DNA of 64,000 nucleotides from a virus (IMGVR_UViG_3300027963_000034:122552-186551); one strand, 5' to 3'; shown: positions 15,765 through 42,597, counted from the first letter of the stretch. Notes: generated by a model from the letters alone, not told the origin. Numbers and translations are program-made.

Positions 15765-17186
15765 CTAAATCAAAGTATTTTCACCTTGTAACAAAAAGTT
15801 AATCATTTTTGATTGTTCGTGTTGATGCTTTTTTGAAAAAGAAAGAAAATGTTCCTGATTATACAAACAAATTTCTTTAACATTTCTTAAAAATTCATCT
15901 TTTTCATCTTTTGGTTTATTATGAAATTTCATTATTTCATGTATTACTTTATACATTCTATTTGAATCTTTTACTTCCGTATCATAACTTTCATCAATAA
16001 ATCCATCAAATGTTTTAAATCCCAAAGAACGAATATATTCCAATGATTTTGCAGGTCCTAATAATATAAATGGTTGACAATGGCCAATGGGTTTCCATAT
16101 TTTTTCAGAAAGATATCCAGTAGCAAATTCTTTTTCTTCGTGACCATGTGATGTTTGAAAAAATATAGATTCAGTAACAATACTCATATATGAATTTAAA
16201 TATATATCTTTATTTTCAAACCCATATCCAGCTATTTTTGTTAAATCATCAATATCCAAATGATTCGATGTATTTTTTACTAAATCTATAAACGAATCAT
16301 CATCAAACATATATCTATGCTCATCTATAAGTTGTTGTGAATAAAACTTTTTATCCCAAGAAACTAAAAAATTATCTAACCCAGCTCTCCATAAATCATA
16401 CAATACTTTTATTCTATGCGGTTTCCAATGTCTACAAAGAAATAAAAAATCTTTTTTATCTTTACCAATTGAATCTATAAATTCTTCCGGTGTAACTACT
16501 GAATTTTTTGTATTCCCTATTTTTCCAACCTGTGGTTCATCATTATTATTCCAATATGAAAAATCTGGATTTGTTAATGTATTTAAAAATTCTTGAGATT
16601 TTGCTATTAATGCTTGATTATAATCCAATACTTTTATATTTCTTCCTAATTTTTCAATATTCTTTTTTAATTTAAAATCTTGAAAAATAAAATAAACTTT
16701 TTCATCTGGTATTTCATTCTTATCAATAAAGTTAAATATTTTTTCAAAATTTTCTTTATTAACACCTAATCCACCATCTATAAAATAACTTATAACTAAA
16801 TTTCCATCATAATTTTTAATTTCTTCAATTGCAGTTTTAGAAACAAATTCTAATGCCAATTGAGAATGTATTGAGCTTCCGATTCCAAAAAACTTTTCAA
16901 AATTACCAAATGGTTCTACCACATAAAACCATTTTTTTCTTATTCCTTTTTTTTCTCTATCTTTTATTATTTCAAATATAGACTTTCTATTAGTATATTC
17001 TGATAAATAATTACTATTATAAACCGCCCAATCATCTCCCCATCTTTCTCTAAAATACGGACCAGATTGGTCAAATTTAAAATCAGATGCTCTTGCAATT
17101 GAACCTAAAAATTTAGGATTTAAACAATTTGGTTGTTCTCCATTATGTGTTACCACATCATAACCAAATATTAATTGTTCTATCAT
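15765..17186 (-). CDS. Putative glycosyltransferase (GT10/GT-B-like family, paralog 1)
   Basis: SIVTES...YLSEKIWKPIGHCQPFILLG...GFKTF; resembles the GT10 E...Y.TEK motif. Confidence 0.4.
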   Translation of the reverse strand: MIEQLIFGYDVVTHNGEQPNCLNPKFLGSIARASDFKFDQSGPYFRERWGDDWAVYNSNYLSEYTNRKSIFEIIKDREKKGIRKKWFYVVEPFGNFEKFFGIGSSIHSQLALEFVSKTAIEEIKNYDGNLVISYFIDGGLGVNKENFEKIFNFIDKNEIPDEKVYFIFQDFKLKKNIEKLGRNIKVLDYNQALIAKSQEFLNTLTNPDFSYWNNNDEPQVGKIGNTKNSVVTPEEFIDSIGKDKKDFLFLCRHWKPHRIKVLYDLWRAGLDNFLVSWDKKFYSQQLIDEHRYMFDDDSFIDLVKNTSNHLDIDDLTKIAGYGFENKDIYLNSYMSIVTESIFFQTSHGHEEKEFATGYLSEKIWKPIGHCQPFILLGPAKSLEYIRSLGFKTFDGFIDESYDTEVKDSNRMYKVIHEIMKFHNKPKDEKDEFLRNVKEICLYNQEHFLSFSKKHQHEQSKMINFLLQGENTLI

Positions 17187-17187
17187 A

Positions 17188-18261
17188 TTATAATAATTTA
17201 TTTTTTAAAGTATATTTTGATAAAAATTCAGAAAGAATTTCTTTTACAAATTTTTTATTTAATCTAGATGAAACATGTCCTAAATACCATCTATTATCCA
17301 TTTCATATTTTATTTCTTCTAATGTTTTATCATGATGTTCCATAAATAAAATATCCGCATATACTGATTTATTCATATCTAATGGTCTATTTGGATATGT
17401 TTTTAAATTAGAAACATCCCAATTTCGAATCGCCCATTCAATTATACCACCATGTTTTGTAATACCATCTTCTTTATAAAACCAATGATTTGACCAATCT
17501 ATCATATCTATTAAATTTTTAACATATGGTGTATCTGAATAGTCATATAAATTATCCAATTCCCAAGTATTTGGTATAAATTTTTTATCCAATACTGATT
17601 CTGAAAATTTATCTTTATCAGTTTCTCTATAATTTGGAAATCCCATTCCCCAATCTTTTGTGTAACTTTTAGAAAAATTATTTTGAATATCAAAAGTTTT
17701 ATATTCTATACCTTTTAATTTTAAATAATTTTGAAGTTTTAACATTGCTTCAAAATGATATATTAAACAATTATCATTTGATAGAATGTATTTTATAAAA
17801 TATGGTAAAAATTCTTTTATTTTGTTATCAACATGTCCAACACCATATCCTCCGGTTAAAAACCAATATCCATATTGACCATTGTATTCTTTTTCTTCAA
17901 TCCAATCCGATATATGTGCCAATCCTTTTAAATCTATACCAAATTCATCTATTTTTTCATTTGATATAAAAAAAGCTTGTCTTGAAAAATTTGACCATTG
18001 GGCTATCACAGAAATATCTTCTGCTAATACTCCTTTTTTTAATAACTTTTCTACTCCGTATATTATTGAATTTGCTATTGTGTGATTATCATTTGTTGCA
18101 CTTCCATAATTTAAAACATTTACATTATATAAATTTTCAATCCAATGTGGCCATCTCCACATTTCTATAAAATCATTTTGAAAATCAGAACAAGTACCTT
18201 CGGTATTGCATCTATATTCTTGACGTGTGAATGAACATCCACTTGTTATTAAATATTTCAT
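17188..18261 (-). CDS. SGNH/GDSL-like esterase or acyltransferase (paralog 1)
   Basis: N-terminal ITSGCSFT, NYG...N block and C-terminal GHVS. Confidence 0.55.
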   Translation of the reverse strand: MKYLITSGCSFTRQEYRCNTEGTCSDFQNDFIEMWRWPHWIENLYNVNVLNYGSATNDNHTIANSIIYGVEKLLKKGVLAEDISVIAQWSNFSRQAFFISNEKIDEFGIDLKGLAHISDWIEEKEYNGQYGYWFLTGGYGVGHVDNKIKEFLPYFIKYILSNDNCLIYHFEAMLKLQNYLKLKGIEYKTFDIQNNFSKSYTKDWGMGFPNYRETDKDKFSESVLDKKFIPNTWELDNLYDYSDTPYVKNLIDMIDWSNHWFYKEDGITKHGGIIEWAIRNWDVSNLKTYPNRPLDMNKSVYADILFMEHHDKTLEEIKYEMDNRWYLGHVSSRLNKKFVKEILSEFLSKYTLKNKLL

Positions 18262-18264
18262 TTA

Positions 18265-19437
18265 TTAAGCAGTTTCGTATATTTTTTTTATTGAATTTGG
18301 ATATATTTCATTTGTCAATATATTGAAATTATCTTTTGAATAATTATTATAATCTTCTTTAAATTGTTTTAATTCTCTTTTTGATAAAGACATTACTTTT
18401 TTAGTAAAATTTTTAATGCCATCCATTCTTTCCGAATCATTTGCTATATCATTATATGAATGATTCCAAAAATCATATCTATATTTTAATCCCATATTTT
18501 CTAGCATTGATATAGTGTTAACCTTTGAAATCATAATAAATGGGTGACCCATTAAAGTTGGTTTCATTGTTTTTTCTGAAATATTATTCCAATTTAAAAA
18601 GGTATCTGCTGTACCTCTGGACCTTTCCGTATGGTAAAACCTAGTTTCGGCTACAATATCAAAATAAGAATCTAAATAAGAAACAAAATTATAAGCGTTA
18701 TTTCTTTCTCTATATTTTTCATAATTTTCATAATCATTTAAATGCGGCAATTCTTTTAATATTTTCATATTATTATATTCCTCTCTAAATGCAACAGGTA
18801 TAAAATCATCAAATAAAGTTGGCTCATAATCAGGACCAGTTGATGCCCATATAAAATCTTTTATATAATCATTTTCATATAAAAATTCTAAAAATTGTAG
18901 TTTATGTATTCTAGTATGGCCTGCATAAAACATACCTTTAAATTTCCTTAAAACTTTATTAGAGGCCATTTCAACTTTTTTAAAAGCTAAAATGTTTTGA
19001 GGAATTATACTAGTTGGTTGGATATAATGAAACATCAATTCTTCAAACCATAATTGATTATCTCTATTTTTAATTAAATTTTTAGATATCACATAATTTT
19101 CAACCTTAATCAAATCGCATAATTGGTCTATATGTTTTTGATTAATTTCTTGATTATCATATGTTGAAAAATCAAAAAAAACATTTTTTAATGATATTGA
19201 TTTTATAAACGAATTTAAAAAATCATGCATACCCATTTCTGGAGAATCAAACGATTCAAAAGAAATAAATAAAGATGTATTTAAATCTATTGAGTCTAAA
19301 TTTACTAATTCAAATTTAGTAAATAAATCAAAAGATTTAATAAGCTCATTAAAATTGGATTCAAATGAACCGGGTATTATTTTATATCGTTCTAAACTAT
19401 TTGTTTTTTTTAGATGTACAAAACAAAATTTTTTCAT
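18265..19437 (-). CDS. Putative glycosyltransferase (GT10/GT-B-like family, paralog 2)
   Basis: DIVAETRF...ISEKTMKPTLMGHPFIMI motif shared with paralogs 1 and 3. Confidence 0.4.
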   Translation of the reverse strand: MKKFCFVHLKKTNSLERYKIIPGSFESNFNELIKSFDLFTKFELVNLDSIDLNTSLFISFESFDSPEMGMHDFLNSFIKSISLKNVFFDFSTYDNQEINQKHIDQLCDLIKVENYVISKNLIKNRDNQLWFEELMFHYIQPTSIIPQNILAFKKVEMASNKVLRKFKGMFYAGHTRIHKLQFLEFLYENDYIKDFIWASTGPDYEPTLFDDFIPVAFREEYNNMKILKELPHLNDYENYEKYRERNNAYNFVSYLDSYFDIVAETRFYHTERSRGTADTFLNWNNISEKTMKPTLMGHPFIMISKVNTISMLENMGLKYRYDFWNHSYNDIANDSERMDGIKNFTKKVMSLSKRELKQFKEDYNNYSKDNFNILTNEIYPNSIKKIYETA

Positions 19438-19439
19438 AA

Positions 19440-19577
19440 TTAAAACGATTTATATACAAACGGGTCTCTTTTTTTAAGTTCTTCTAATTTTTTTTTAATC
19501 CTCTTTTTGGTTTTATAATCATCGTATTTCTTAACAAAAAAAGAAATTATAGGGATTTTTTTTAATAATTTTTTCAT
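19440..19577 (-). CDS. Small basic protein (45 aa)
   Basis: Not in the ORF track. Hand translation gives MKKLLKKIPIISFFVKKYDDYKTKKRIKKKLEELKKRDPFVYKSF; it fills the gap between two operon genes almost exactly. Confidence 0.6.
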   Translation of the reverse strand: MKKLLKKIPIISFFVKKYDDYKTKKRIKKKLEELKKRDPFVYKSF

Positions 19578-19582
19578 ATTTT

Positions 19583-20125
19583 TTAATTTTTATAATATAA
19601 TTCAGGATATTCAACTAATAAATGAACACCACCTTCTTTTAATGCATATTTATATGCTAATTCTATATCTTGCCAACTTTTTAAATCGTGAAATTCAATA
19701 TTTTTACAAATTGATTTAAATTCTTCAAAATAATTTCCTTTATGTTGGTGACCTGGGTCTAATGGGGTATCACTACCTTTACCTAATCTAATAATTAAGT
19801 TTAATTTTTTTCCAGTCATTAATTCAAATTTATCAACGTGATTTATTAGTTGATTTGCCGCTGATACTATGAAATCCCATCTAGGATAAAATGTAACAAC
19901 TCTTTTACCAGTTATTGCCAATCCTAAACTCATACCCATTTGAGTTTCTTCCATTACAGGTACTTCAATCATTTTTTCTTTTGGTACTTCTCCCAAAGTT
20001 GTACTCATTGGATTTCCTGCATAAACAATTTGTTGTCCTATAAAAATTGTATCTTCTAATTTTGCTAACTCCGTCATTGCATTTGTTAATGCATCTTTAT
20101 ATGGAGAATATTGTGGTGTGCTCAT
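19583..20125 (-). CDS. TPP-dependent enzyme, E1-beta/transketolase pyrimidine-binding subunit (short form)
   Basis: IEVPVMEETQMGMSLGLAITG...PRWDFIVSAANQLIN; lacks the C-terminal domain III. Confidence 0.8.
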   Translation of the reverse strand: MSTPQYSPYKDALTNAMTELAKLEDTIFIGQQIVYAGNPMSTTLGEVPKEKMIEVPVMEETQMGMSLGLAITGKRVVTFYPRWDFIVSAANQLINHVDKFELMTGKKLNLIIRLGKGSDTPLDPGHQHKGNYFEEFKSICKNIEFHDLKSWQDIELAYKYALKEGGVHLLVEYPELYYKN

Positions 20126-20127: not shown

Positions 20128-21246
20128 TTAATTAAATAAGTGATGAAAATTGTGATTTACATATTTTAAATTATGTATTTTTTTTACTTCTGTCATAAAA
20201 TCTCTAAATAAAATATTTGTTGGATTAAATACCTGCAATTCTTCTAAATAGTCTGCGGAAAAGGTTCCCCAATCTACTATCTGTCTATAATTTAAAGTTA
20301 TACCCCATTTAAATTTGGAATCTTTAAATATGTCAGTTATTAGTTCATAAAACATAAACATTTCTTTGTAATTATGTTTGCTAACTACCATTGAACATAC
20401 AAACTCTTCTATTATATGGTCTTGTGTTGCTAAAAATTTTAAATTTTCTATCAACCTATCCCATTGTCCATTCCATCTAGTTTTCTTTTCGTATGTTTCT
20501 TTTGTAGCAGCATCTATACTAATTTCAATTGTTTTTATGTATGGAGTTGCTTTCATTTTTTTCCACAAAGGTTCATCTAATAAATTTCCGTTTGTTATTA
20601 TTTGCAATTGTTCTAATTTTGGATATTTTGTTATATCAAAATTTATTAAATAATCTCTATAAATTTTTGAATAAAATGGGTCACCACTTCCGGTAACCAT
20701 AATTCTTTTTAATCCACTTGCAAAATTATCTTCTATTGATTTTAGTAAATGTAATTTTGATTTATGTTCAGGTGATTCCAAATCATCATTTGGTATTAAA
20801 CTAACTCTACAAGAAGGACATCTTAAATTACAACTCCTATCAAATCCAAAGAGTATCTCTTCTGGAGGTGTTTTGAAATTAATTATATCTTCTTCGGTAT
20901 GTATATTATAAACTTCTCTAAACTCTTCTATTTCTCTAAACAAATATGGTTTTCTCCCTGTGTTTATTAATTCGTTTAGTCTTGGACATATAGTGTGGTT
21001 ACAATATTTGTATGTGCCATCCATAACCGATTTACGAATATTTTGAGCAGGCTCCGATGTCCAATTTCTCATAACATCATCACTTTCATTTACAGGAAAC
21101 CAATTTTCTTTTCCATTTTCGTCTACTCTAATACTTTGAGGTGCCCATGATGGACAGCATATGAATTGAGATGACCATTGTACATCACTATACATAAATG
21201 GCATCTCACACACATATTTTTTTAATATTTCCTCTTTATTATCCAT
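20128..21246 (-). CDS. Radical SAM protein with N-terminal twitch/SPASM-like domain
   Basis: CNLRCPSC, TGSGDPF and ITNG motifs; N-terminal CEMPF...ICCPSW...CNHTIC. Confidence 0.85.
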   Translation of the reverse strand: MDNKEEILKKYVCEMPFMYSDVQWSSQFICCPSWAPQSIRVDENGKENWFPVNESDDVMRNWTSEPAQNIRKSVMDGTYKYCNHTICPRLNELINTGRKPYLFREIEEFREVYNIHTEEDIINFKTPPEEILFGFDRSCNLRCPSCRVSLIPNDDLESPEHKSKLHLLKSIEDNFASGLKRIMVTGSGDPFYSKIYRDYLINFDITKYPKLEQLQIITNGNLLDEPLWKKMKATPYIKTIEISIDAATKETYEKKTRWNGQWDRLIENLKFLATQDHIIEEFVCSMVVSKHNYKEMFMFYELITDIFKDSKFKWGITLNYRQIVDWGTFSADYLEELQVFNPTNILFRDFMTEVKKIHNLKYVNHNFHHLFN

Positions 21247-22238
21247 TATGGTTTTGAGTTTGGATTGAATTCATTTTTATGAGTTTTATACCATTGTAAA
21301 GCGTTTTCTAAACCAGTTTTTAAATCGTATTTTGGTTTCCAACCTAACTTACGCAACTTCTCATTAGAAAGTAATCTAACGGGTATCATTGGAGCTTTGT
21401 TACTTACATACTCAATTGGGTTATTATTATTCTCAACCTCTTTAATGGTGTTTAAAACTTCATTAACACTATATCCACTACCATAACACACATTATAGAT
21501 ATCGTAAGTATCTACATTTTCTGCAACACATATAAACCCACTAACCATATCATCTACATGGATTACATCTCTAACTTCACTACCATCTCCCCATACTGGT
21601 ATTGGATTTAAATTATCTGCTACTTTACGAATATTTGCAGGAGTAACGTGACACTTTTCGTAATCGTATTTATCATTTGGACCAAATGCGTTTGAAGGTC
21701 TAATAATTACACATTGCATTGGATTATGAATATGATTTGATAAAAAATCACAAAGTGTTTCACCATATCTTTTCATATTACCTACCGCTTTATATACCGG
21801 AAATATGTTAGGTGTTTGGCAATTTTCATCCTCATAACAATACTCACTACCCAAATCAGGATAGACAGTATTTGAAGAAATATACATAAATTTACGAACT
21901 TTGTTTTTCCAAGCTTGTTCCATTAGATTTACATTCATTTCCACATTTGCCGTAACGTGTAATAAAGGATTAACTTTGGTATCTAACGCATTTGATGTGT
22001 TTGCTGCACAATGAAAAATTACGTCAACATTTTCTGTAACTTTATTACAAAACTCTGCAGTTTGTAAATCTCCTTTTAAATGTTCTACATTTTCCCAACC
22101 CTTGAAATCTTCTCTTAAACCTCTACCAAAGGTAATTGCACGGATATTAGTATATCCTTGCTCCCATAGGGATTTAATTAATCGTGAACCAATAAATCCA
22201 CTTGCTCCTGTAACTAAAATTTTGTCTGTTTTTTTCAT
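21246..22238 (-). CDS. NAD-dependent epimerase/reductase (extended SDR, GDP-fucose synthase-like)
   Basis: GASGFIG, YKAVGNMKRY (Y...K), RPSNAFGPND and VWGDGSEVRD. Start placed at MKKTDK (22238) to avoid overlap with the upstream gene. Confidence 0.85.
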   Translation of the reverse strand: MKKTDKILVTGASGFIGSRLIKSLWEQGYTNIRAITFGRGLREDFKGWENVEHLKGDLQTAEFCNKVTENVDVIFHCAANTSNALDTKVNPLLHVTANVEMNVNLMEQAWKNKVRKFMYISSNTVYPDLGSEYCYEDENCQTPNIFPVYKAVGNMKRYGETLCDFLSNHIHNPMQCVIIRPSNAFGPNDKYDYEKCHVTPANIRKVADNLNPIPVWGDGSEVRDVIHVDDMVSGFICVAENVDTYDIYNVCYGSGYSVNEVLNTIKEVENNNNPIEYVSNKAPMIPVRLLSNEKLRKLGWKPKYDLKTGLENALQWYKTHKNEFNPNSKP

Positions 22239-22243
22239 ATTTT

Positions 22244-23320
22244 TTATTTGAATATATCCCAATTTAAAACTACATCATTTACAAATTTTCTTGTTAAAAT
22301 GGATGATGTGTGTCCATACCAACTTTTTTCTAAATATTTTTTTTGTCCATCAATATCCAATCCATTCATTTCTCTCCATATAACTTTTGGTAAATTATAA
22401 TTACCATCATCCAAATTGTAATCAAAGTTTCTAATACTCCATTCAATTAGACCTCCAAACGAAGATACGGAATTTTCTTCAAAAAACCAAAAGTATTTTT
22501 CAAAATTAATTCTATCTGAATACATTTTTACATATGGGTTATTTTCTAATATAGTAGGTTGTTTCCACGTATTTTGTATTTTTCTTTGCTCTATCATTTG
22601 TTGATATGGTGTTCCAAATTTAGGATTATCCCAAGTATCGTATGGTGGAGTTCGTGTATCTAATGCATTTTTAGAAAAATTATTATTCATATTAAATGAA
22701 TAAAATTTTGTAACTCCAACTTTTTCTAACCAACTTAATAAACCAACCAAAGAATCAAACCAATCTATATATCGTTCTTCTTTTGACATTACAGCATCTA
22801 AATAGTGAGCAGCAAATTCGTCTACTTTTCCAGGATGTTCGGTTAAATTATATCCACCTGTTAAATAATAATATCCATGTTGATAACAATAATCTTTTTC
22901 ACCAAATTTAATAAAATCATTAGTATGTGGGTGTGAATCATTTTTTTCCAACCATAATTTTGTTAAATCATTTTTTGGGTTTTCAACATATTTTGATGGT
23001 GAAATAAAAAATGAATTTCTAGTCAATGTTGTCCATTGCGCAACAACTATTATATCTTTTGGATTAATTTTCTGATTATAAATTAAATCACTTACTTTAT
23101 AAAATATTGAACGACATATTGTTTTGTTGTCATTTGTAATTGTTCCATAATTATGAAATTCAGCATCTTTACCCAATGTTCTCCATAACCAATGAAACCA
23201 AGTATAATCTTCTTTTACATCATTTTTCCATCTATCTTCTTTTTCTGGTAAAGATATATTAACTCTATAATTGTGAGTAAATGAACAACCAGATGTAACT
23301 ATATGTAATTTATTTTCCAC
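22244..23320 (-). CDS. SGNH/GDSL-like esterase or acyltransferase (paralog 2)
   Basis: VTSGCSFT, NYG..TNDN, IVVAQWT and C-terminal GHTS; clearly paralogous to 17188..18261. Confidence 0.55.
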   Translation of the reverse strand: MENKLHIVTSGCSFTHNYRVNISLPEKEDRWKNDVKEDYTWFHWLWRTLGKDAEFHNYGTITNDNKTICRSIFYKVSDLIYNQKINPKDIIVVAQWTTLTRNSFFISPSKYVENPKNDLTKLWLEKNDSHPHTNDFIKFGEKDYCYQHGYYYLTGGYNLTEHPGKVDEFAAHYLDAVMSKEERYIDWFDSLVGLLSWLEKVGVTKFYSFNMNNNFSKNALDTRTPPYDTWDNPKFGTPYQQMIEQRKIQNTWKQPTILENNPYVKMYSDRINFEKYFWFFEENSVSSFGGLIEWSIRNFDYNLDDGNYNLPKVIWREMNGLDIDGQKKYLEKSWYGHTSSILTRKFVNDVVLNWDIFK

Positions 23321-24266
23321 AATAAAAATTATATGTTTTTTGTAATGCTTCTTTAAATCCTAATTTTGGTAATAGTGATAATGCTTTTTGTTTTGTAGTA
23401 TCCATCTGTCTTCTCATATCACCATTTGGTTTTGTAGTATCCCAATTTATAGATATATCTTTACCACTAATTTTAATCAATTCTTCAATCATAGATTTAA
23501 TAGTAATTTCTTCTCCTGCACCAAAATTTACTGTCGTATGCATTCTCATTTCATATAACTGAATAATGGCATCTGCCACATCTCCAGCATATACAAAATC
23601 TCTAATTGGTGTACCATCACCCCATGCTTCAATTGAATCAATTGCTTCATATATTTTTTTACATTGAGTTGCAATGACCGTACCATTTCCACTAAAATCA
23701 TCATACTCACCAAATATGTTTGCCGGTCTTATTATTGCCCAACGAAGATAATTATGTTGAACTTTATATGCTTCTAATAAAATTTCACCCATTCTCTTAC
23801 TCCAACTTGGAAACCAATCTGCTTCTGACGGTAGGGTTTTCCAAACACTTTCTTCTTCAAATTTTTCTGCAGGTGCATATACACCAACCGAACTTACAAA
23901 TACTAACCAAATGTTATTTTTTGCACATTGATTAATAATCTCAGTATTAATTTTAAATGAAGGATATAAAAAATCAACTGGATTATTTTTTGCTCTTAAT
24001 GGAGAGCCTTTAATACCAAATGTATTAAATACGGCATCAGGTGTTTCATAAAAGAAAAGATTTTTAACATTATCTTCTATTGTTAAATCCATTTGATAAA
24101 ATGTAAAATTATCCGACTTTGGTAAGTTTTCTGAATATTTTAAATCGACACCGATTACATTATATCCTTTTTCTAAGGATTTTTTTACTAAATGGATTCC
24201 TACTAATCCACTACATCCAGTTATAATAACTTTCTTCCTTCTATTTGCATTTGTCTCTTTACCCAT
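23310..24266 (-). CDS. NAD-dependent epimerase/reductase (GDP-fucose synthase-like)
   Basis: GCSGLVG, WSKRMGE, RPANIFG and WGDGTPIRDF. Confidence 0.85.
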   Translation of the reverse strand: MGKETNANRRKKVIITGCSGLVGIHLVKKSLEKGYNVIGVDLKYSENLPKSDNFTFYQMDLTIEDNVKNLFFYETPDAVFNTFGIKGSPLRAKNNPVDFLYPSFKINTEIINQCAKNNIWLVFVSSVGVYAPAEKFEEESVWKTLPSEADWFPSWSKRMGEILLEAYKVQHNYLRWAIIRPANIFGEYDDFSGNGTVIATQCKKIYEAIDSIEAWGDGTPIRDFVYAGDVADAIIQLYEMRMHTTVNFGAGEEITIKSMIEELIKISGKDISINWDTTKPNGDMRRQMDTTKQKALSLLPKLGFKEALQKTYNFYCGK

Positions 24267-25604: not shown

Positions 25605-26237
25605 TTAAAAAGCTATCCACTTACCAGTCCCGTAATGTGGGAATTTTGATTTATATGTATAATATATTACATCCGATGGAACTTCTCTTTTTGTATTCCA
25701 AGTTGCTTCGGTTGGTGTATATGTTGATACTCCATTATCTTCTACCACAAATACAATTGGTAAATCAAAGTTTTTCGCATATTTGTGAACTTCATAGAAT
25801 ATACCACTTTCAAACGACATATCACCTAGAAACACAAATACTTTTTCATCACTACCTTTTTGTTTAATCCCCATTGCAACACCTAATGCAATTGATAGAG
25901 TACCTCCTACAATTGCTGATGCGTAAAATTTATCGTCTATATCACATAGTGTTATAGATTTACCATCCAATATAAGTGCTTCCGCGTAATCTGCTGAAAT
26001 ACCCTTTAATAACCAATGGTAATGAGAACGCCACGTACTAAATACCCAGTCATTTTCTGAAACTCGTTTGAATATCTCAACCAATTGTTCTTCGTTTCCA
26101 TTTGATAAGTGTATTGGACCTCTGATTTTTCCTGCTTCCCAATGTTCAACAATTCTTTCTTCAAAACGAATAAGTTTTTCTGGTGTCCATCCAATATCTT
26201 TTCTAACTATTGGATATTGTTCTAAATTTTTAATCAT
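25605..26237 (-). CDS. TPP-dependent enzyme, E1-alpha-like subunit (short form)
   Basis: GPIHLSNGNE, STWRSHYH and the TPP-binding motif GDMSFESG...EDN. Confidence 0.85.
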   Translation of the reverse strand: MIKNLEQYPIVRKDIGWTPEKLIRFEERIVEHWEAGKIRGPIHLSNGNEEQLVEIFKRVSENDWVFSTWRSHYHWLLKGISADYAEALILDGKSITLCDIDDKFYASAIVGGTLSIALGVAMGIKQKGSDEKVFVFLGDMSFESGIFYEVHKYAKNFDLPIVFVVEDNGVSTYTPTEATWNTKREVPSDVIYYTYKSKFPHYGTGKWIAF

Positions 26238-26952
26238 TTGTTATATTTTTATATAAAAGTTCTGCTACATTTTTATGTCCATTTATTGAAAAATGGCCGT
26301 CATTTGAATCAATTTCATCGGAGATTCTTAATTTATTATTTTCTATATAATTTTTTAAATTTTTATGGCCTTGAAAATTAACAATATTAATATCTTCATT
26401 TTCTAATAAAAAATAATCATACAAAATGAAATATGGTTTAAATCCTTTAGATACTAAATAAGAATTTAATAAATATATTTCTTTTTTATCTATTGAACTT
26501 TGAACATTTTCATCAAATATGTTTAATACAAAATTTGAATAATAATCAAATAAAGGTTTAAATTCTTCATTATTGTTGTATGGACTATCGGAATATAAAA
26601 CACTATTTAAATTATATTTAACACCATTCCACCAAATCGTTTTTCTTTGAGGCATGGTCAATTGTATTATTGCAATTTTATTTTTATATTCAGATAAATC
26701 CGTTTCATGTATATAATCGAATGTAGTTTGAAAAATATTTTCATTTGAATTACATGATTCTGATAAATTTATGTAATCACAATTACATTTTGTAGATAAT
26801 ACTTTTGAATATCTCAATTCTTCTCTTATTTCAAAATATTGTGGCTTTCGTTCAATAAGATTGTATCCATATTGATTTAAAATATAGGGGTCTTCCAGGC
26901 CTCCACCTTCGGTAAAACTACATCCATTAAATAAAATAAAATCTGGATTCAT
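26230..26952 (-). CDS. SGNH/GDSL-like esterase or acyltransferase (paralog 3)
   Basis: FNGCSFTEG, NLSESCNSN and C-terminal DGHFSINGH. Confidence 0.6.
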   Translation of the reverse strand: MNPDFILFNGCSFTEGGGLEDPYILNQYGYNLIERKPQYFEIREELRYSKVLSTKCNCDYINLSESCNSNENIFQTTFDYIHETDLSEYKNKIAIIQLTMPQRKTIWWNGVKYNLNSVLYSDSPYNNNEEFKPLFDYYSNFVLNIFDENVQSSIDKKEIYLLNSYLVSKGFKPYFILYDYFLLENEDINIVNFQGHKNLKNYIENNKLRISDEIDSNDGHFSINGHKNVAELLYKNITND

Positions 26953-27497: not shown

Positions 27498-27498
27498 A

Positions 27499-32128: not shown

Positions 32129-33591
32129 TATAATAATACTGATATAAAATGATAATTATCCTTATCTACATTTGTTAATTCTCTATATTTACAGGTACTT
32201 AATCCGTCTTTTTCATTTTCCAAAATATCATTTGCAATATTACTAAAAAATTTTACTTGATTTATTCGTGTTCCCTTTTCTTTCCAAACACCGTCTACAT
32301 ATCCATTCTCTTTATGTGGTACTAATTTGAATAATGATTTTCTTCTTTTAGGAATTATAATTTCTTCTTCTTTTATGTTTTGAATTTCAACTAAATGACA
32401 ATTATTTATAATACCATCATTGCCATTCATAGATAAATCAAATAAAATTTCATTTTTAATTAAATTAAAATCGTAATAACATAATAATTTATCAGCTGAT
32501 TTATATTTTTTGAAATTAGTTGTCAATGGTATTAATGTATTATCATTTAATGTTTGAATTTCTAAATCAGAAAGTATTCCATCATATATTGCAAAATCAG
32601 TTATTGTTCCTTTAAAAAAATTTGGATTTTCTGTTCTTATTGGATTACCACAACCAATATAAAACGATTCTTCGTCTGGATGATTATATATGTTTGACAA
32701 TCTAAATTTTTCAATACCATCTTCTAAATGATGAAATCCAATTTGTTTTTCTTCTACAAATTTTCCATCTTGGTACATTGATATTTTTTTGTTTTTAAAA
32801 TCTAAACAAAAAACAATTGTAGTGTATATGTTTGTAGTAATATCGGTTGTTATGGATTGGGGTTCTAATTTTTCGGACCAGGCTTCTACTTTATATCGTT
32901 TAAATGAATTATAAGTTATATTTAAATCATATCCAGGAATAGAAAATATAGTAAAATCGTCGTATTCTTTATTTGGATTTAATATAATATCATCCGATTT
33001 AAATGAAACGCTAATTGTTTTATTAGTTTTAAAATCAAAAATTTCTTTTAATTTATTACACTCAACAAATGAACTCTTTCCATTAAAATACATTCCTTTT
33101 TTATTAATGATATTTTTTGCAATAGATTTTTTTTCACAACCTATGTTGTATTTTTTACATCTATATAATAAATCATCATCCTCGAATCCCCAGCCCCAAT
33201 ACTCATTGGAGTATCCATTTATTCTTTCAAAATCTTCAACAGGAAACATAGTTACTCCTCCAAAATATTCATCAAATATAATTCTTTTAATATTTGGATT
33301 GAATTCAAAATTGGTAGCCAAATGTACAGGATGATTTGGATATGAATAATCCGCTTTTACGGGTAGCATATCTACGTCATGAAATACAACATAATTGCAT
33401 CCCAATTTTTTAGCATTATCAAAACCAATATTTAATAGTTTTCCTCTATTAAATGGTTTATCATCTGCTTGTTCAACTACTATTAATTCAAAATTAATAT
33501 TTTTTGAATTTAAAAATTCAGTTATTTCTTTTTTGAATAATTTTAATTGAGATTCTCTTTTTTTATATGGAACTATTATTCCTAATTTCAT
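32128..33591 (-). CDS. GT7 with inserted LamG domain, paralog 2
   Basis: VPYKKR, FNRGKLLN, HDVD, YFGG and WGFEDDD; LamG insert, then LVPH. Confidence 0.85.
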   Translation of the reverse strand: MKLGIIVPYKKRESQLKLFKKEITEFLNSKNINFELIVVEQADDKPFNRGKLLNIGFDNAKKLGCNYVVFHDVDMLPVKADYSYPNHPVHLATNFEFNPNIKRIIFDEYFGGVTMFPVEDFERINGYSNEYWGWGFEDDDLLYRCKKYNIGCEKKSIAKNIINKKGMYFNGKSSFVECNKLKEIFDFKTNKTISVSFKSDDIILNPNKEYDDFTIFSIPGYDLNITYNSFKRYKVEAWSEKLEPQSITTDITTNIYTTIVFCLDFKNKKISMYQDGKFVEEKQIGFHHLEDGIEKFRLSNIYNHPDEESFYIGCGNPIRTENPNFFKGTITDFAIYDGILSDLEIQTLNDNTLIPLTTNFKKYKSADKLLCYYDFNLIKNEILFDLSMNGNDGIINNCHLVEIQNIKEEEIIIPKRRKSLFKLVPHKENGYVDGVWKEKGTRINQVKFFSNIANDILENEKDGLSTCKYRELTNVDKDNYHFISVLL

Positions 33592-33887
33592 TATTTTTCA
33601 GAATCTTTTTTAGGTCTACCTACAATTTCTTTTACTGCTGCAGGTGAAGAAGTGGTTAACGCTTCTAAATTATCTGCAATTGCTTTTGAATTATTATGAA
33701 ACTCATATAGATAATATTGTAATCTATCACTCCAATCTTGTTTTTCAATTTCTTCAAACCAAACTGTCAATGCATCTAAAGAGTTGGATATTTTTTCCAA
33801 TGCTTTAACTTTTCGTTGTTCTAAAAGAAGAGATTCTGATTGAGTAGTTTCTAGTTTTTCTACTGATGTTTTTGTTGTTGTTGCCAT
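33591..33887 (-). CDS. Hypothetical protein
   Basis: 98 aa helical ORF with operon-style 1-bp overlap. Confidence 0.55.
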   Translation of the reverse strand: MATTTKTSVEKLETTQSESLLLEQRKVKALEKISNSLDALTVWFEEIEKQDWSDRLQYYLYEFHNNSKAIADNLEALTTSSPAAVKEIVGRPKKDSEK

Positions 33888-33888
33888 T

Positions 33889-35367
33889 TTATTTTAATTT
33901 TAATATTAATTTTTGTGTATGATTGTTTATATTTTGTTTTGTTTTTAACTTATAATTTATAGAACTTAAACCAAATTTAAAAGAATTTCTTTTTTGTTTA
34001 GTTGTTTCGTAGAAAAATATTTTTTCATTTTCAATCATATCATCATCTTTTTCTTGCCAATAATATTTCTCTAATATACTAAATTTATTTGAATTTTCCA
34101 AAATTTTATATTTTCCAAAATCTTCAGCTGGCATTTTTATTTTATATGAATATTTTTGTTCTTCTTCATTTCCTTGTATAGAATTATCCATTTTAATAAT
34201 TCTAGCATTACTTTTAAATTCTTGAGTATCAACAAAAAATTGACCTACGGATTTATTAAATGGTATATTTAAAACTGGTTCAAATGTTGTTAACGATGCG
34301 TCGTAATTATTACTATACAACATTTCTATTTCAGTTTGAGTCAAATCATAATCAAAAATACATAGATTACTAATTTTTCCTTTAAACCTATTTCGTAACG
34401 ATAACGAACCTATCCATAAATTTTTTCCAGCAAAATCCATTAAATTTTTTGTATTGTCGTAAAATGTTTCATTAACCAATCTTCCATCAAAATACATAGA
34501 TGCGATACCAGTGGATGTACTTAATTTAATTGTAACATTTGTCCATTTATTTTTTAGAATAGAATTATCATTCCATATTTGTATTATTTCACCATCTTCC
34601 GTCCAATGTTGAAAAACTATTGCTTCATTATTTTTAATAAATATTCCAGAATCATATCCTTCTTTACCAACAATGCATCCATCTTCCGATTGGTCATCAT
34701 CAACAAAAATATCAAAAGATATGGTAAACGAATCGGAAAATACATAATCTAATTTTGTATTTGGTTGAATAAATAAACTATTACCATTTTTACAAATAAA
34801 TGAATTTATTTTCTTTTTTATTTCTGAATCAACTTCCACTATGTCAATGAATCTATGATAATCAAAAATATCTTTATTAAAGAATTTTATTATAGGCAAA
34901 TTATCAGGAATTATTTTATTCATTCTATAAAGTAAATCCAAATATTCAAAACCACCACCCCAATAATCATTACTAAATCCATTTATTTTTTCAAAATGTT
35001 CTTTGGATATTTTAAATACACCACCAGTATAATGTGGATATGGTTTGAATTTATGAATATCTAAAATTTTAGATGAGATGTGTGTTGGGTATTGAATGTT
35101 TAAACTAGAGTAATCGCAACCCTCTTGCGGAAGTAAATCTATATCTTGAAATACAAAATATGAATACCCTTCATCTTTTAAAACATCTACGGCAGCATTA
35201 CATAATGCTCCATAATTAAATAATGTTGGAGATTCTTGTTCTACAATGTATATTGTGTAATTTTCAAACTTATCCCCTAAATACCAATCCATGTGTCCTA
35301 AAAACTTATAGAGTTGTTCTTCTCTATTTTGGTAGGGAACTATAATAGCTAACTTTTCTGAAATCAT
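33889..35367 (-). CDS. GT7 with inserted LamG domain, paralog 3 (degenerate acidic motif)
   Basis: VPYQNR, FNYG, QDID and YTGG are present, but WGGGFEYLD replaces WGxEDDD. Confidence 0.8.
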   Translation of the reverse strand: MISEKLAIIVPYQNREEQLYKFLGHMDWYLGDKFENYTIYIVEQESPTLFNYGALCNAAVDVLKDEGYSYFVFQDIDLLPQEGCDYSSLNIQYPTHISSKILDIHKFKPYPHYTGGVFKISKEHFEKINGFSNDYWGGGFEYLDLLYRMNKIIPDNLPIIKFFNKDIFDYHRFIDIVEVDSEIKKKINSFICKNGNSLFIQPNTKLDYVFSDSFTISFDIFVDDDQSEDGCIVGKEGYDSGIFIKNNEAIVFQHWTEDGEIIQIWNDNSILKNKWTNVTIKLSTSTGIASMYFDGRLVNETFYDNTKNLMDFAGKNLWIGSLSLRNRFKGKISNLCIFDYDLTQTEIEMLYSNNYDASLTTFEPVLNIPFNKSVGQFFVDTQEFKSNARIIKMDNSIQGNEEEQKYSYKIKMPAEDFGKYKILENSNKFSILEKYYWQEKDDDMIENEKIFFYETTKQKRNSFKFGLSSINYKLKTKQNINNHTQKLILKLK

Positions 35368-35379: not shown

Positions 35380-36219
35380 TTATATAGATATTATTTTTTT
35401 GAATAATTTAATCCATTGACCATAATCTTTGAATCCATCATTTTCAATCATAAATTCTTGATTAGTAATATCAATTTGAAAATTATTTCTTCTTATAGCC
35501 TGATACATTTTTAAATATTCGTTTGAAAATGAATAATCCTTTTTGATATCTGCTACTGCTTTAATTCTTTCAACACATGTACTATCCCATTTAAAATGAT
35601 GAACTTGAACATTGTAATAATGATAAGGTGCAATTAATGGGTGATTCCAACCTTGCCATTTCCACGTAGTTTGTCCATCTATTTTTGCATAATGTTGTCC
35701 TGGAGTTATTTCAATATAACCTTTCATTATACAAACTTTATTTGGACATGCTCCAGATAACGGATATCTAAAAAATCCTGCTAATGGAAATTGTTTAAAT
35801 ATATCCACATTATCTTTTATTTCAGGAAAAATCCCATCAATACCAATTCTATCAATAAATCCACCTCTAACCAATTCCCAACCATTTACTTCACAATCTG
35901 CAATTATCTCACTTAAATCATGTGAATAAACATGGAACTCATCATCATCTGAAACTACCCACCAATCATTAGGATGCGTCATTTTTGTTTCATTATATAG
36001 TTGAGTTACATATTCCCAATTATATTTTTCTTTTACCTCTCTTCTTACTATTTTAGCATTTGGAAAATATGAAACAATTTTTTCTACTGAATCATATGTA
36101 GAAAAATTCTCCCACTCATAAACTACAACATAAATTTCATCAACTAAATCTTTGTAATGATTTAACATATGAGGAAGAGTGTTTGTTCTGCTTCCGGTGA
36201 CTGTAACTAATCTTATCAT
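35380..36219 (-). CDS. GT-A fold glycosyltransferase (GT2-like)
   Basis: N-terminal strand, LPHMLNHY, WWVVSDDDEF (DxD) and VHHFKW. Confidence 0.75.
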   Translation of the reverse strand: MIRLVTVTGSRTNTLPHMLNHYKDLVDEIYVVVYEWENFSTYDSVEKIVSYFPNAKIVRREVKEKYNWEYVTQLYNETKMTHPNDWWVVSDDDEFHVYSHDLSEIIADCEVNGWELVRGGFIDRIGIDGIFPEIKDNVDIFKQFPLAGFFRYPLSGACPNKVCIMKGYIEITPGQHYAKIDGQTTWKWQGWNHPLIAPYHYYNVQVHHFKWDSTCVERIKAVADIKKDYSFSNEYLKMYQAIRRNNFQIDITNQEFMIENDGFKDYGQWIKLFKKIISI

Positions 36220-36971
36220 TTTTTTCTTATCAATGTTAATCCAGTTGAAGCTGGTTTGTTTTTTACGATACCAAAATTAAATAAATTAAAAGATTCCCAT
36301 TTAGTTGAATCTATTTCTTTTACCAATCTAACTGGTCCACTCCAATCTTCAAAATCTCCTCTATCTTTTACTTCGGATGTAACTATATACTTATCAGCAT
36401 AATTAGGGTCAGTATCGTGAATTGATATAATTCCATTTGGTGAAATTAATTGAGAATATAATTCAAAATCTTCTTTTACATTTTCATATGAATGTCCAGC
36501 ATCAATATGTAAATAATCAATTTTAATATCATTTAACACAAAATAGTTATGAAATGCATTTAAAGTTGTATCATTAATAATTCTAGGACAAAATTGTCTT
36601 CTGAAAAAAGATTCTTCTACAAACCAATCTACTTTTCCACCAATACCATTCATAGCATCTACAATATAAGTAGTTCCTATATCTCCCCAACTATAATTTC
36701 CATCACCTTCAAATATTCCCTGATTATGTAAATCAATTCTAGCTTGTGTCATAATTCTAGGTATAAATCCTCCACCACTTCCTAGGCAAACACACACTTT
36801 TGCTCTCATATACTGAATAATAGAATATATAATTAAACCGTCTCCTAAATGAGTATCAGTTGCACCATGAGACCATCTATATGGAACATTCTTAAGTATC
36901 TCATCACCAACTTCATCTATTTCTCTATTGTTTGTTATATTATGCTTTATGTAACTTGTATCCTGTAACAT
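36216..36971 (-). CDS. Class I SAM-dependent methyltransferase (Methyltransf_24-like)
   Basis: VCLGSGGG, IDYLHIDAGHSYE and GIISIHDT. Confidence 0.85.
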   Translation of the reverse strand: MLQDTSYIKHNITNNREIDEVGDEILKNVPYRWSHGATDTHLGDGLIIYSIIQYMRAKVCVCLGSGGGFIPRIMTQARIDLHNQGIFEGDGNYSWGDIGTTYIVDAMNGIGGKVDWFVEESFFRRQFCPRIINDTTLNAFHNYFVLNDIKIDYLHIDAGHSYENVKEDFELYSQLISPNGIISIHDTDPNYADKYIVTSEVKDRGDFEDWSGPVRLVKEIDSTKWESFNLFNFGIVKNKPASTGLTLIRKK

Positions 36972-37987: not shown

Positions 37988-38530
37988 TTATCCACATGAA
38001 GGATATTGGCCTGATGAAACATTTATATTTAAATATATGTCAGTAGGTGTTGTTGTTAAAGCATAATGTCCACCGGCAGTTATTCCACAATAAAATGTCC
38101 AGTTAGTTCCACCATTTCCCTGACCAAATGGAACATTAATTATTCCTCCACCAGATTGTGTAAACTGACAACCTATTCTTAATCTTTTTGTAGAAGTTAT
38201 TTCACCTGGGTCTACTAAAATTGTTCCCATATTAACATAATTTGTACCAATAGATTGAGTTGTTAATGTACTAAAATTAAATGCATTATAACTTGTACTA
38301 ATTTGGTATTTAATTGATATTGCATTTGATGAATTTGATAATGTAAATCTATTTCTTGCCCATATTGTGATTGGTATGGCTGCAAATTCAGACATACTAT
38401 CGGGTGCACCCTTACCCGCCGCATTACTTAATGTTCTAAGAGATGTTGAACCAACCGAATATGTAGATGAAACAAAACTTTGTATTTGACTAAATGTTAT
38501 TGGTTGACCCTGTGCTGGTAAAGTTGCCAT
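37988..38530 (-). CDS. Putative tail-fibre-associated virion protein
   Basis: N-terminal LPAQGQPITFSQI...SLRTLS...PDSMSEF module; lies directly after the S74-bearing fibre gene. Confidence 0.5.
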   Translation of the reverse strand: MATLPAQGQPITFSQIQSFVSSTYSVGSTSLRTLSNAAGKGAPDSMSEFAAIPITIWARNRFTLSNSSNAISIKYQISTSYNAFNFSTLTTQSIGTNYVNMGTILVDPGEITSTKRLRIGCQFTQSGGGIINVPFGQGNGGTNWTFYCGITAGGHYALTTTPTDIYLNINVSSGQYPSCG

Positions 38531-38532
38531 AA

Positions 38533-41500: not shown

Positions 41501-42597
41501 CTAGCTGATGGAAAATCCGTAGGTATTTTAAATGGAATGACCGTATCTAATAAATTTTTAGTGGGTTGTATTCCATATAAAGTTCCAATACTACTACTTA
41601 ATGAACCAGAAGCTAAATATATTCCTAAATTGCTTGGTGTAGATGATGAATAAAAAGCATCTAAATTTAATTCATATGTATTTGTGGATTTTATATCCAA
41701 CGAAGATGTATATGTAAAATTGCCACTTCCGGTTAATCTAACACCACTCTCAACTCTACTCGATGTGAGATACGCATTTAATGAACCGGTATTCCAAAAA
41801 CTTTTAAGAGTTTCAGATGTTAATATACCTGTTTGTCCAACAACACTACCAGTTAACCCATATGATGTTAACAATTCTTTTGCTTCAACTAATATATCTT
41901 GTATTAAATCATAATCAGAAATATCTCCTTCTGATGTTCGGAATACTTTTATTCTTTTTACATCTCCTGCAAATGTTTCTAATTTAGAAAGTTTAATATC
42001 AGCAAAAGATTGACTTACTCCTGAATTAACTTTTATATCATTTTCTATTCTATAAATTGGGGATAATATTTCTTTAATAGTTGCAACCGGTCTTTGATAA
42101 AATCTAATTTTTGTAGTATTCGATAAAGATGGATTTACATTTATAGATTTCTGCCACTTAACATTATATTTACCTTCCCAATCAATTGGTACTGAATTTA
42201 CTATCCCGTTACCATCTTCATATTTTGATAACTCGCCTAATATTGTAAGTGTACACGGACCATATGCAGTTTCCGGATAAATGTAAACTGAAACAACTTT
42301 TGAAACACCTTCAAAATATTCGGTTACAATTGTTTCACCATTTATTGATGATGATACTATACCTTCTCCAGGTTCATGATAGATTATATTTCCTGCAGCA
42401 TCTTTTAATTCAATTTGAATTTTAGTATCTGCTAATAATTCTTCTGACCCTGCAATTAAGAATGCATTTTTTCCTCCAGTAAATGAATCTGGTAATTCTG
42501 TTATTTTAAAATATCTACTATTTGGTTCAGTATCCGTTACTAATACGGAATACCTGTCTAAATTTTTAGCGAATAGGGTTTTCTTTATAACGGCCAT
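38533..42597 (-). CDS. Tail fibre/spike with Ser-rich stalk and C-terminal peptidase S74 chaperone
   Basis: TSDKRLKTNIKNI...REVGFIAQEV...LLVECIKEL; repeated fibre modules. Confidence 0.85.
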   Translation of the reverse strand: MAVIKKTLFAKNLDRYSVLVTDTEPNSRYFKITELPDSFTGGKNAFLIAGSEELLADTKIQIELKDAAGNIIYHEPGEGIVSSSINGETIVTEYFEGVSKVVSVYIYPETAYGPCTLTILGELSKYEDGNGIVNSVPIDWEGKYNVKWQKSINVNPSLSNTTKIRFYQRPVATIKEILSPIYRIENDIKVNSGVSQSFADIKLSKLETFAGDVKRIKVFRTSEGDISDYDLIQDILVEAKELLTSYGLTGSVVGQTGILTSETLKSFWNTGSLNAYLTSSRVESGVRLTGSGNFTYTSSLDIKSTNTYELNLDAFYSSSTPSNLGIYLASGSLSSSIGTLYGIQPTKNLLDTVIPFKIPTDFPSASLYFSQSQGEWHLGNISLKLSQDTAFSPDEVSFITTMPSVIGNETFNFKFEFYDVNNNYVPVAVTQSATFTGGVNVNNTLLLVSSSTSQSLAALAAVSSSISGTMTVYSSSASSSVNILSGSVSGTIGSVSSSVSGTIGRVSGSISGSIYSLSGSVSSSLTLTSGSITLVSSSLLFTSQSLSSSLTTLSASVSSSFSFNASQSAYQVYSASQYLDKFIFTDANGKLNQPPTASDPGLYLGSEYLGYFSGSGTSGWKTYMDNQGDFYLTSSVPGGGLLAWDSSTATLQINGSINIQGGNAATTTALSSSLNAVSGAINSATSSLSSSVASSQNSLSSSVATTTFTTATGLIAKPPTVLVGSTSGLYLGSTYLGYYNGTDWKTYMANNGNFYLSGAGSDSLTWASGVLTINGAINITGGNAATTTNVSNAVTSGSLFASNAVTSGSNAATNAATSGSTAAARAVTSGSLFAANAAASASISASAVDDKVFTNTLGRITKTPTPGSTSGLYLGQANLGYYDGARWKTYMDNTGLFYLTGSAGGNALLWDGSTLTIKGNLSVGSSVPNSVVTGLGSLATKSSVSATTDVTGLGALATRDTVAATHIDANAVTNAKIAADAVTEGKLATDAVTSGKISANAIIAGKIATDAITADTIAAGAITATKIYAGAVEADAIKAGAIVAGKIATDAITAGNIQAGAVTATKISVADLSALNASIGGWSINSDSISKTASGKTITLNSAGREISLTGLGTTNVKIGTEGIYTLGASAANTTYIGDGGVMVGGRWSAGDQPDNYITLLVTELSPGVNVARQVIYNSVGNPNYEALGIYSVPDSSNSSLKISQGGANIQNSASSNSGYAIQCIGAFYCSSTGAFVGDVTANTSDKRLKTNIKNIDSPLEKLSKINGVYFNWNDKAKKLANKNTKIREVGFIAQEVQSILPEIIKAAPFDVINSEGGSKSGENYLTIQYEKMVPLLVECIKELQKEIQELKNK

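Follow-up and report, generated by a model that had tools for sequence, protein, structure and literature searches.

Layout of the locus

We analysed a stretch of viral DNA of 64,000 nucleotides (IMGVR_UViG_3300027963_000034:122552-186551; hereafter, the window), in which a tail-fibre gene heads a long run of putative glycan-building genes. The G+C content is ~29% and all of the long open reading frames (ORFs) lie on the minus strand. Read along that strand, the baseplate and tail genes come first (64000-47739, with matches to baseplate wedge PHROGs), followed by endonuclease I, a primase and an Mre11-Rad50-type fusion (47420-42874). The glycan block occupies 42597-15765. It is followed by the gene for a 1472-amino acid (aa) protein with an NMNAT/cytidylyltransferase-like N-terminus and lastly by the large terminase, portal and prohead protease. 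The block thus sits between the tail and head modules.

Every ORF in the block is on the minus strand: 24 of at least 98 aa (the fibre and 23 others) and one of 45 aa. With the 45-aa ORF included, neighbours are spaced by −46 to +26 bp; without it the sole exception is a 145-bp gap (19438-19582), which that ORF fills. An earlier interpretation by a model from the DNA alone (the sequence-only reading) had described a tightly packed, single-strand run from a late-type motif through the fibre and ~24 ORFs, and our gene map confirms this. That structural-gene ('late-type') motif, ATATTTAT, occurs 15 times on the minus strand of the window. Nine of these copies are intergenic (5953, 8343, 15755, 42610, 47727, 49012, 50990, 56372 and 62933), though intergenic DNA makes up <4% of the window, and they stand a few to ~30 nt upstream of structural genes (baseplate, tail, portal and others). 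The total count is not above chance; the placement is, and it is kept in three complete genomes of relatives (G001, G002 and G003). We propose the motif as a candidate late promoter or activator site of the lineage. The intergenic copy that follows the one at the fibre gene marks the 3′ boundary of the unit. Terminator-like hairpins within the block were found at chance level only, and were intragenic. At the level of sequence, the block is confirmed as one transcription-unit-like, fibre-headed operon with natural boundaries at 42597 and 15765. The features are collected in Table 1.

Table 1. Features of the glycan block, in the order of the minus strand
Feature	Position	Strand	Evidence or remark
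Structural-gene ('late-type') motif ATATTTAT	42610..42617	-	ends 12 nt before fibre ATG; same site in G001, G002
Tail fibre, 1354 aa	38533..42597	-	Peptidase_S74 chaperone at residues 1245-1304 (60 bits); tail-fibre PHROGs
180-aa Ser-rich protein	37988..38530	-	no family match; variable slot in relatives
GT-B fold glycosyltransferase, GT4-like, 326 aa	36998..37978	-	AF2 pLDDT 89.5; Foldseek
Class I S-adenosylmethionine (SAM) methyltransferase (Methyltransf_24)	36216..36971	-	42.6 bits, cut-off 26.3
GT2-like putative GT-A transferase (Glyco_tranf_2_4)	35380..36219	-	PF13704, below cut-off
GT7N/GT7C + Laminin_G_3 paralogue, degenerate acidic motif	33889..35367	-	above Pfam cut-offs
Conserved 98-aa protein among GT7 genes	33591..33887	-	conservation in relatives
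GT7N/GT7C + Laminin_G_3 glycosyltransferase (DVD, WGFEDDD)	32128..33591	-	above Pfam cut-offs
GT7N/GT7C + Laminin_G_3 glycosyltransferase (DID, WGMEDDD)	30668..32128	-	above Pfam cut-offs
Twitch-domain radical SAM enzyme (NF033640)	29242..30666	-	353 bits, cut-off 170
254-aa protein, weak LamG-like match	28472..29236	-	19.7 bits, below cut-off
Extended short-chain dehydrogenase/reductase (SDR), nucleoside diphosphate (NDP)-sugar epimerase/dehydratase-type	27499..28470	-	Epimerase family, above cut-off
RmlC-like NDP-4-keto-6-deoxyhexose 3,5-epimerase	26952..27533	-	dTDP_sugar_isom, above cut-off
SGNH/GDSL-like protein (GCSFT block)	26230..26952	-	lead only
Truncated thiamine pyrophosphate (TPP)-dependent E1-alpha-like subunit	25605..26237	-	E1_dh, above cut-off
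GT-B fold glycosyltransferase, GT10-like ETNF..TEK motif, 457 aa	24221..25594	-	structure search
Extended SDR, best model GDP-L-fucose synthase type	23310..24266	-	Epimerase family, above cut-off
SGNH-like / DUF6071 protein	22244..23320	-	DUF6071 20.7 bits, below cut-off 27
Extended SDR	21246..22262	-	Epimerase family, above cut-off
Second radical SAM enzyme, SPASM/twitch-type matches	20128..21246	-	Radical_SAM, above cut-off
Truncated TPP E1-beta-like (pyrimidine-binding) subunit	19583..20125	-	below cut-offs
45-aa ORF in the only long gap	19440..19577	-	ORF call
390-aa paralogue with C-terminal domain of GT10-like proteins	18265..19437	-	sequence comparison
SGNH-like paralogue, 32% identical to 22244-23320	17188..18261	-	sequence comparison
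473-aa paralogue with C-terminal domain of GT10-like proteins; last cluster gene	15765..17186	-	sequence comparison
Next intergenic ATATTTAT motif	15755..15762	-	ends 4 nt before 1472-aa NMNAT-like gene; G001, G002, G003 alike

The fibre consists of an N-terminal domain (residues ~1-450), a Ser-coated stalk (~440-590), Ser/Ala/Thr-rich repeats and a C-terminal S74 intramolecular chaperone. There are 44 Ser among residues 463-562, and the gene contains 33-bp tandem repeats. Across residues 440-600 the hydrophobicity has a sharp period of 3.67 residues (power 69, against <8 at other periods), which identifies the stalk as a hendecad coiled coil. Ser, Gly and Thr fill almost every exposed position, and the usual charged residues are missing. 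In relatives the first ~450 residues or so are conserved and the remainder is swapped freely.

We counted a family call as confirmed when it scored above the curated profile cut-offs (Pfam, NCBIfam). By this measure the three GT7 proteins, the methyltransferase, RmlC, the three SDRs and the two radical SAM enzymes of the sequence-only reading all stand. Its GT4 and its three GT10-like proteins hold up as GT-B folds but have no Pfam matches, and of its TPP pair the E1-alpha half passes whilst the E1-beta half falls below. The GT2 protein and the three SGNH proteins likewise gave sub-threshold matches only, yet these, like the E1-beta call, are consistent across homologues.

Glycosyltransferases number up to eight: one GT4-like GT-B, one GT2-like, three GT7+LamG and three GT10-like. 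The 326-aa GT-B enzyme adjoins the fibre side of the cluster and is its most widely conserved gene. The best Foldseek matches were GlgM, PimA, BshA and WaaG (E 1e-9 to 1e-6); neither Pfam nor NCBIfam gave a match, and an EPFGY..F..G motif is invariant among the homologues. We regard this protein as the candidate initiating transferase. For the GT2-like protein, PF13704 was matched in 12 of 16 homologues and a DDD motif is invariant; a PDB profile search with this family returned nothing significant. Both motifs by which CAZy defines GT7 (DxD and WGxEDDD) are intact in two of the three paralogues, the third reading WGGGFEYLD. The 1861 homologues of the GT7+LamG proteins are all unnamed metagenomic proteins, and tblastn against deposited phages found no match. 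The 457-aa GT-B protein reached Z ~10 in the structure search, with fucosyltransferases tied with other GT-B enzymes (FUT9, Z 9.4; Helicobacter pylori FucT, Z 9.1). It has no Pfam match and an Atlas GT10 score of just 0.80; its ETNF..TEK motif, which resembles that of FucT, is invariant in homologues.

Amongst the remaining proteins, those of SGNH type have Atlas leads to DUF6071/GDSL and conserved GCSFT, N and GH columns; a PDB profile search with the family gave nothing significant. No nucleotidyltransferase was found within the block. Hydropathy analysis of the cluster proteins (Kyte-Doolittle >1.6) revealed no signal-peptide-like or transmembrane segment, the lone stretch above that value being 21 residues inside a TPP-binding fold, so that the reported absence of signal peptides and membrane proteins is borne out. 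Separately, the twitch radical SAM enzyme has cellular homologues at 35-47% identity, the great majority of them in Bdellovibrionota (Bdellovibrio, Bacteriovoracaceae, Halobacteriovorax). More than one copy is present in several of those genomes, and none of the other cluster genes co-occur there. Ralstonia phage RsoM2USA also has an N_Twi_rSAM homologue, whose neighbours are all hypothetical proteins.

Conservation and phage lineage

A megablast search with window positions 30000-50000 found no match in deposited phages. Microcystis phage Mel-JY01, Flavobacterium phage immuto and the 484-kb uncultured phage LR756508 encode baseplate proteins with 39-41% identity to that of the window. In IMG/VR, >400 contigs carry a homologue of the Mre11-Rad50 gene and >200 carry a GT7+LamG gene; the relatives include complete genomes of 198-245 kb, one with terminal repeats. 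Read matches to the stretch come from freshwater DNA metagenomes of several studies. Judged by these matches, the window is a piece of a widespread, uncultured, jumbo-sized myovirus. An identity as a 'moraphage' was considered and rejected: the complete relatives lack HSP70, which PMC12619734 reports in all moraphages, and probably represent a different lineage.

The fibre lies between the Mre11-Rad50 and GT-B genes in all 29 of the 29 loci that hold both. After the GT-B gene the order in relatives is methyltransferase, GT2-like, 98-aa gene, two to three GT7+LamG genes and the twitch radical SAM gene. The three complete genomes keep the whole order (fibre, GT-B, methyltransferase, GT2-like, GT7s, radical SAM, SDR, RmlC, TPP) through to the NMNAT-like gene and the terminase. 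Their distal half is variable, including the SGNH-like and GT10-like genes and extra inserts.

More divergent phages carry other enzymes at the same place. LR756508 has the same backbone, but between its Mre11-Rad50 gene and fibre homologue there are just a GT-B homologue and a GT32-like gene, the latter overlapping the fibre start. (An IMG/VR scan with the LR756508 fibre N-terminus found no match.) In the cultured phage Mel-JY01, a 1226-aa GT4 + GT9 fusion stands between the fibre homologue and the NMNAT-like gene. Its domains are Glycos_transf_1 (50 bits), Glyco_transf_9 (30 bits) and a sub-threshold TibC_1st, the N-terminal domain of TibC, which is a cytoplasmic protein-serine heptosyltransferase. 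The deposited annotation of this fusion (PP395634.1, 4750-8430) is 'methyltransferase FkbM'. The same fibre N-terminal domain is thus found beside different glycosyltransferases in the two divergent phages. Immuto has neither the fibre nor the glycosyltransferases at the corresponding locus. In sister lineages the fibre is followed directly by the NMNAT-like gene, without the cluster, and a GT-B homologue is wholly absent from one complete genome of 252 kb. Together these comparisons provide a modest argument for a link between the cluster and the fibre.

Two contigs placed in Pelagibacterales metagenome-assembled genomes (MAGs; one marine, one lake; 1-10810 and 1-18614) are fragments of the phage lineage, with the same order of GT-B, methyltransferase, GT2, GT7, radical SAM, SDR, RmlC and TPP genes and 27-29% G+C. 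A third contig of the lineage is in an 'Alphaproteobacteria' bin. The MAG-binned contigs give a lead towards SAR11/LD12 hosts, at odds with an earlier idea of Bacteroidota. In addition, a 65% identical GT7+LamG gene is present on a 6-kb contig (IMGVR_UViG_GVMAG-M-3300007547-5_000001) that carries the label of a giant-virus MAG but is probably a misbinned fragment of the phage lineage.

What the glycan may be attached to

The best reading of the block, which we advance tentatively and with a little less than even confidence, is a late-expressed, membrane-independent system that glycosylates the phage's own virion proteins. We favour it because the unit begins with the fibre gene, directly behind a structural-gene motif, lies between the tail and head modules and has no initiating phosphoglycosyl transferase. 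Mycobacteriophages provide a precedent for glycosylated virions (Freeman et al. 2023, cited in PMC12619734), and giant viruses one for autonomous glycosylation (PMC9614988).

A possible pathway can be outlined. The pathway would take up host NDP-hexoses, from which the SDRs and the RmlC-like epimerase would make epimerised and 4-keto-6-deoxy intermediates. E1-like pairs act in branched-sugar pathways, and a two-carbon branch would by analogy come from the split TPP E1 pair. Further tailoring, to methylated and possibly acylated forms, may fall to the methyltransferase, the SGNH-like proteins and the radical SAM enzymes. The GT4-like enzyme beside the fibre would start a chain on protein hydroxyls, to be extended by up to seven further glycosyltransferases, whilst the three lectin-type LamG domains could keep the growing chain bound. 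The product would decorate virion proteins before assembly. The best candidate acceptor here is the 140-residue Ser/Gly/Thr-surfaced coiled coil of the fibre, and other virion proteins may be acceptors in addition or instead. Through the variable distal half of the operon, glycans would differ from strain to strain. We infer the sugar-making, chain-starting and chain-extending steps from family membership, and the decoration of virion proteins from context.

Several observations weigh against virion proteins as the acceptor. The GT-B folds of the cluster match protein, lipid, small-molecule and DNA glycosyltransferases about equally. Most glycosyltransferases of O-antigen and capsule synthesis are peripheral enzymes without transmembrane segments, acting on undecaprenyl-linked acceptors at the cytoplasmic face, and so the sequence-only argument that soluble enzymes must have cytoplasmic acceptors does not follow. 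The fibre has 0.44 Ser per 100 aa here and 0.31-0.44 in about half of the cluster-bearing relatives, but the other half or so have ordinary fibres at 0.17-0.22; the stalk is therefore neither an obligate acceptor nor the sole reason for keeping the cluster. Fibres at 0.31-0.44 were seen among cluster-bearers only. We looked for Ser-rich fibres kept without the cluster, the case that the sequence-only reading had named as damaging to itself, and found none: in the cluster-less sister lineages the fibre has at most 0.21 Ser per 100 aa. This association is, however, essentially that of one lineage versus its sisters, and so is not independent evidence. The proposal that the glycan is attached to tail or baseplate proteins therefore keeps the support of a soluble, fibre-headed operon, the invariant fibre adjacency and the improbability of a DNA acceptor, but loses the Ser stalk as a necessary target.

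The most serious rival, which we consider rather unlikely, is remodelling of the host surface: the enzymes would act on or feed the host's undecaprenyl-linked O-antigen or capsule, with the host flippase, polymerase and ligase carrying out export, and the effect could be, for example, a block to superinfection or avoidance of progeny re-adsorbing to lysing cells. RmlC, SDRs, GT2 and GT4 are all families typical of O-antigen loci, the distal half of the operon is hypervariable as it is in those loci, and fragments of the lineage were binned into Pelagibacterales MAGs. Modification of the host O-chain is also how the similar fibre-plus-glycosyltransferase islands of pelagimyophages and cyanomyophages have been read, itself without experiments (PMC7029224; PMC12801897). 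Yet an initiating phosphoglycosyl transferase, a flippase, a polymerase and a ligase are all missing from the block, as is every other kind of membrane protein. This excludes an export machinery in the block and is compatible with lipid-linked acceptors, since the relevant glycosyltransferases are usually peripheral. Moreover, a structural-gene motif drives the block together with the fibre, a late stage at which to convert the surface in a lytic infection; the window shows no integrase; and the pairing of glycosyltransferase and fibre recurs with unrelated glycosyltransferases in divergent relatives.

The GT-B enzymes might alternatively place mono- or oligosaccharides on hydroxylated phage bases as a protection against restriction, an explanation that we judge very improbable. 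The 326-aa enzyme does fall near T4 alpha-glucosyltransferase (AGT) clusters in the Atlas (0.96) and aligns with the structures of T4 BGT and AGT, and phage DNA glycan clusters can be diverse and can adjoin structural genes (bioRxiv 10.1101/2023.12.21.572611; PMC13326640). The structural matches are nevertheless generic to the fold: those to BGT and AGT are at fold level (TM 0.56-0.60) and rank below the GT4 enzymes. Both known routes also need an enzyme to make the handle, either a thymidylate-synthase homologue (for 5hmC, 5hmU or 5hoC) or a C5-methylase with TET/5mYOX. Tet_JBP (PF12851) and C5 DNA methylase (PF00145) are each found in none of the three complete cluster-bearing relatives, ThyA (PF00303) in G001 only and ThyX (PF02511) in G002 only, so that G003 has neither. 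The missing handle enzymes make a DNA acceptor unlikely, and eight glycosyltransferases plus branched-sugar chemistry far exceed any known DNA glycan. Some other cytoplasmic acceptor, such as a free or lipid-anchored oligosaccharide, a glycosylated metabolite or non-virion proteins of phage or host, is improbable. Soluble enzymes without a defined acceptor, and the presence inside the cluster of the conserved 98-aa protein and a LamG-only protein, would suit it, but it leaves the conserved place behind the fibre and the structural-gene motif unexplained. To our knowledge there is no precedent for so large a phage investment in such a product.

Glycosylation of virion proteins can be extended to a bolder and correspondingly more doubtful proposal, in which the ~24 genes would be a giant-virus-style factory (~10% of the genome) building a strain-variable, branched, methylated oligosaccharide on the Ser-coated stalk. 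The glycan would form the fibre surface and serve in host recognition or virion protection, in an abundant freshwater and marine jumbo lineage that possibly infects Pelagibacterales.

Known systems and neighbouring genes

The block belongs to a known kind, in which aquatic myoviruses carry islands of fibre and glycosyltransferase genes. One such island is the 'host recognition cluster' (HRC) found in pelagimyophages and cyanomyophages, which lies in the structural region, is hypervariable and has tail fibres, many glycosyltransferases and deoxy-sugar genes (Zaragoza-Solas et al. 2020, PMC7029224); the cyanomyovirus S-SCSM2R has an island with 13 glycosyltransferases (PMC12801897). As in the HRC, we see a large, partly hypervariable island in the structural region of a big aquatic myovirus, with a fibre, many glycosyltransferases and deoxy-sugar enzymes, and radical SAM. 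The HRC, however, is placed between the VrlC gene and gp14 of a T4-like backbone, whereas the lineage here (198-245 kb, 29% GC) does not have T4-core synteny: its backbone runs Mre11-Rad50, fibre, cluster, NMNAT-like gene, terminase, and the nearest isolates are Mel-JY01 and immuto (~40% baseplate identity). It also differs in having a single tight, fibre-headed operon with a conserved core, in its main glycosyltransferase family (GT7+LamG, against GT8 in the HRC) and in its TPP E1 pair for branched sugars. Overall, the features that set the block apart are its lineage, its arrangement as one tight operon around a conserved core, its size (22-30 kb, with as many as eight glycosyltransferases and ~14 tailoring genes), the GT7+LamG family, the TPP and radical SAM chemistry and the hendecad Ser-coated stalk.

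Amongst systems with protein-linked glycans, the mycobacteriophages Che8, Corndog and Myrna glycosylate their virions, according to Freeman et al. 2023 as relayed by PMC12619734 and PMC11256854. There too, soluble phage glycosyltransferases, with or without a methyltransferase, lie co-oriented within the structural genes; their virion proteins are modified in the cytoplasm, as is proposed here. In the outline given by those sources, the mycobacteriophages use one to three glycosyltransferases and host sugars, and modify the C-termini of capsid or tail-tube subunits. Here there are up to eight, ~14 genes would tailor sugars de novo, and the acceptor that we suspect is the stalk of a fibre. Giant viruses (chloroviruses and Mimivirus), as PMC9614988 summarises them, combine soluble glycosyltransferases with rhamnose-type 6-deoxy sugar and methylation pathways to make complex and unusual virion-protein glycans in the cytoplasm without membrane machinery, from gene clusters that, as here, vary by clade. 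The same summary gives them eukaryotic hosts and N-linked capsid or fibril glycans, unlike the system here, and a chlorovirus glycosyltransferase and A075L match the cluster GT-B enzymes at the generic fold level only.

The sequence-only reading had likened the locus to serine-rich-repeat protein (SRRP) adhesins, which proved a loose analogy. As with GtfA/GtfB of SRRPs and with TibC/Aah, a GT-B enzyme is adjacent, and in those systems a fibrous adhesin is O-glycosylated on Ser in the cytoplasm; GtfA, SdgB and Gtf3 are among the generic fold matches of the GT-B enzymes. However, there is no GtfB-like partner and no accessory Sec (SecA2/SecY2) in the window, and the stalk is a hendecad coiled coil, not a serine-rich-repeat tract. 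In contrast to TibC/Aah, there is no heptose pathway and the stalk is not a beta-helix.

Large glycosyltransferase islands are commonly found beside the tail fibres of aquatic phages, and the literature takes host lipopolysaccharide or DNA as their target by default. The lineage is an unusually clean test case: it combines a single fibre-headed operon and a defined Ser-coated stalk with hundreds of natural variants, and lacks both membrane components and DNA-handle enzymes. The cultured phage Mel-JY01, a distant relative, has a compact glycosyltransferase fusion at this locus and would be suited to a test of virion glycosylation. If virion glycosylation holds true, the glycans on phage surfaces would have to be reckoned with generally in adsorption, in the stability of particles, in resistance to grazing and in virome ecology. 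The cluster would also be a source of new sugar-modifying enzymes: the GT7+LamG proteins, the twitch radical SAM enzyme and the split TPP pair for branched sugars.

Several neighbouring genes deserve mention. The only plus-strand ORF hereabouts (42708-42893; 61 aa, MKYAMLQIKKETHELLKDYCEEHGF...) lies in the 276-bp gap between the Mre11-Rad50 and fibre genes and points away from the fibre promoter region; by size and pattern it is a candidate small regulator of ribbon-helix-helix type. The Mre11-Rad50 gene itself (42874-46026, minus strand) encodes a single 1050-aa polypeptide, in which an Mre11-type phosphoesterase is fused to a Rad50/SbcC-type ATPase with a long coiled coil, and is kept at 70-93% identity in >400 viral contigs. 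The gene after the cluster (11332-15750, minus strand), which has its own ATATTTAT motif, encodes a cytidylyltransferase/NMNAT-like HIGH-motif domain at residues 18-109, which might supply the cluster with an activated sugar. Just the N- and C-terminal parts of this protein are kept in relatives, and the immuto homologue is annotated as a NadR-type NMNAT. Finally, the head-gene module includes the gene of a Dps-like protein (2242-2613, minus strand; phrog_858, 'starvation-inducible' family, E 1e-17).

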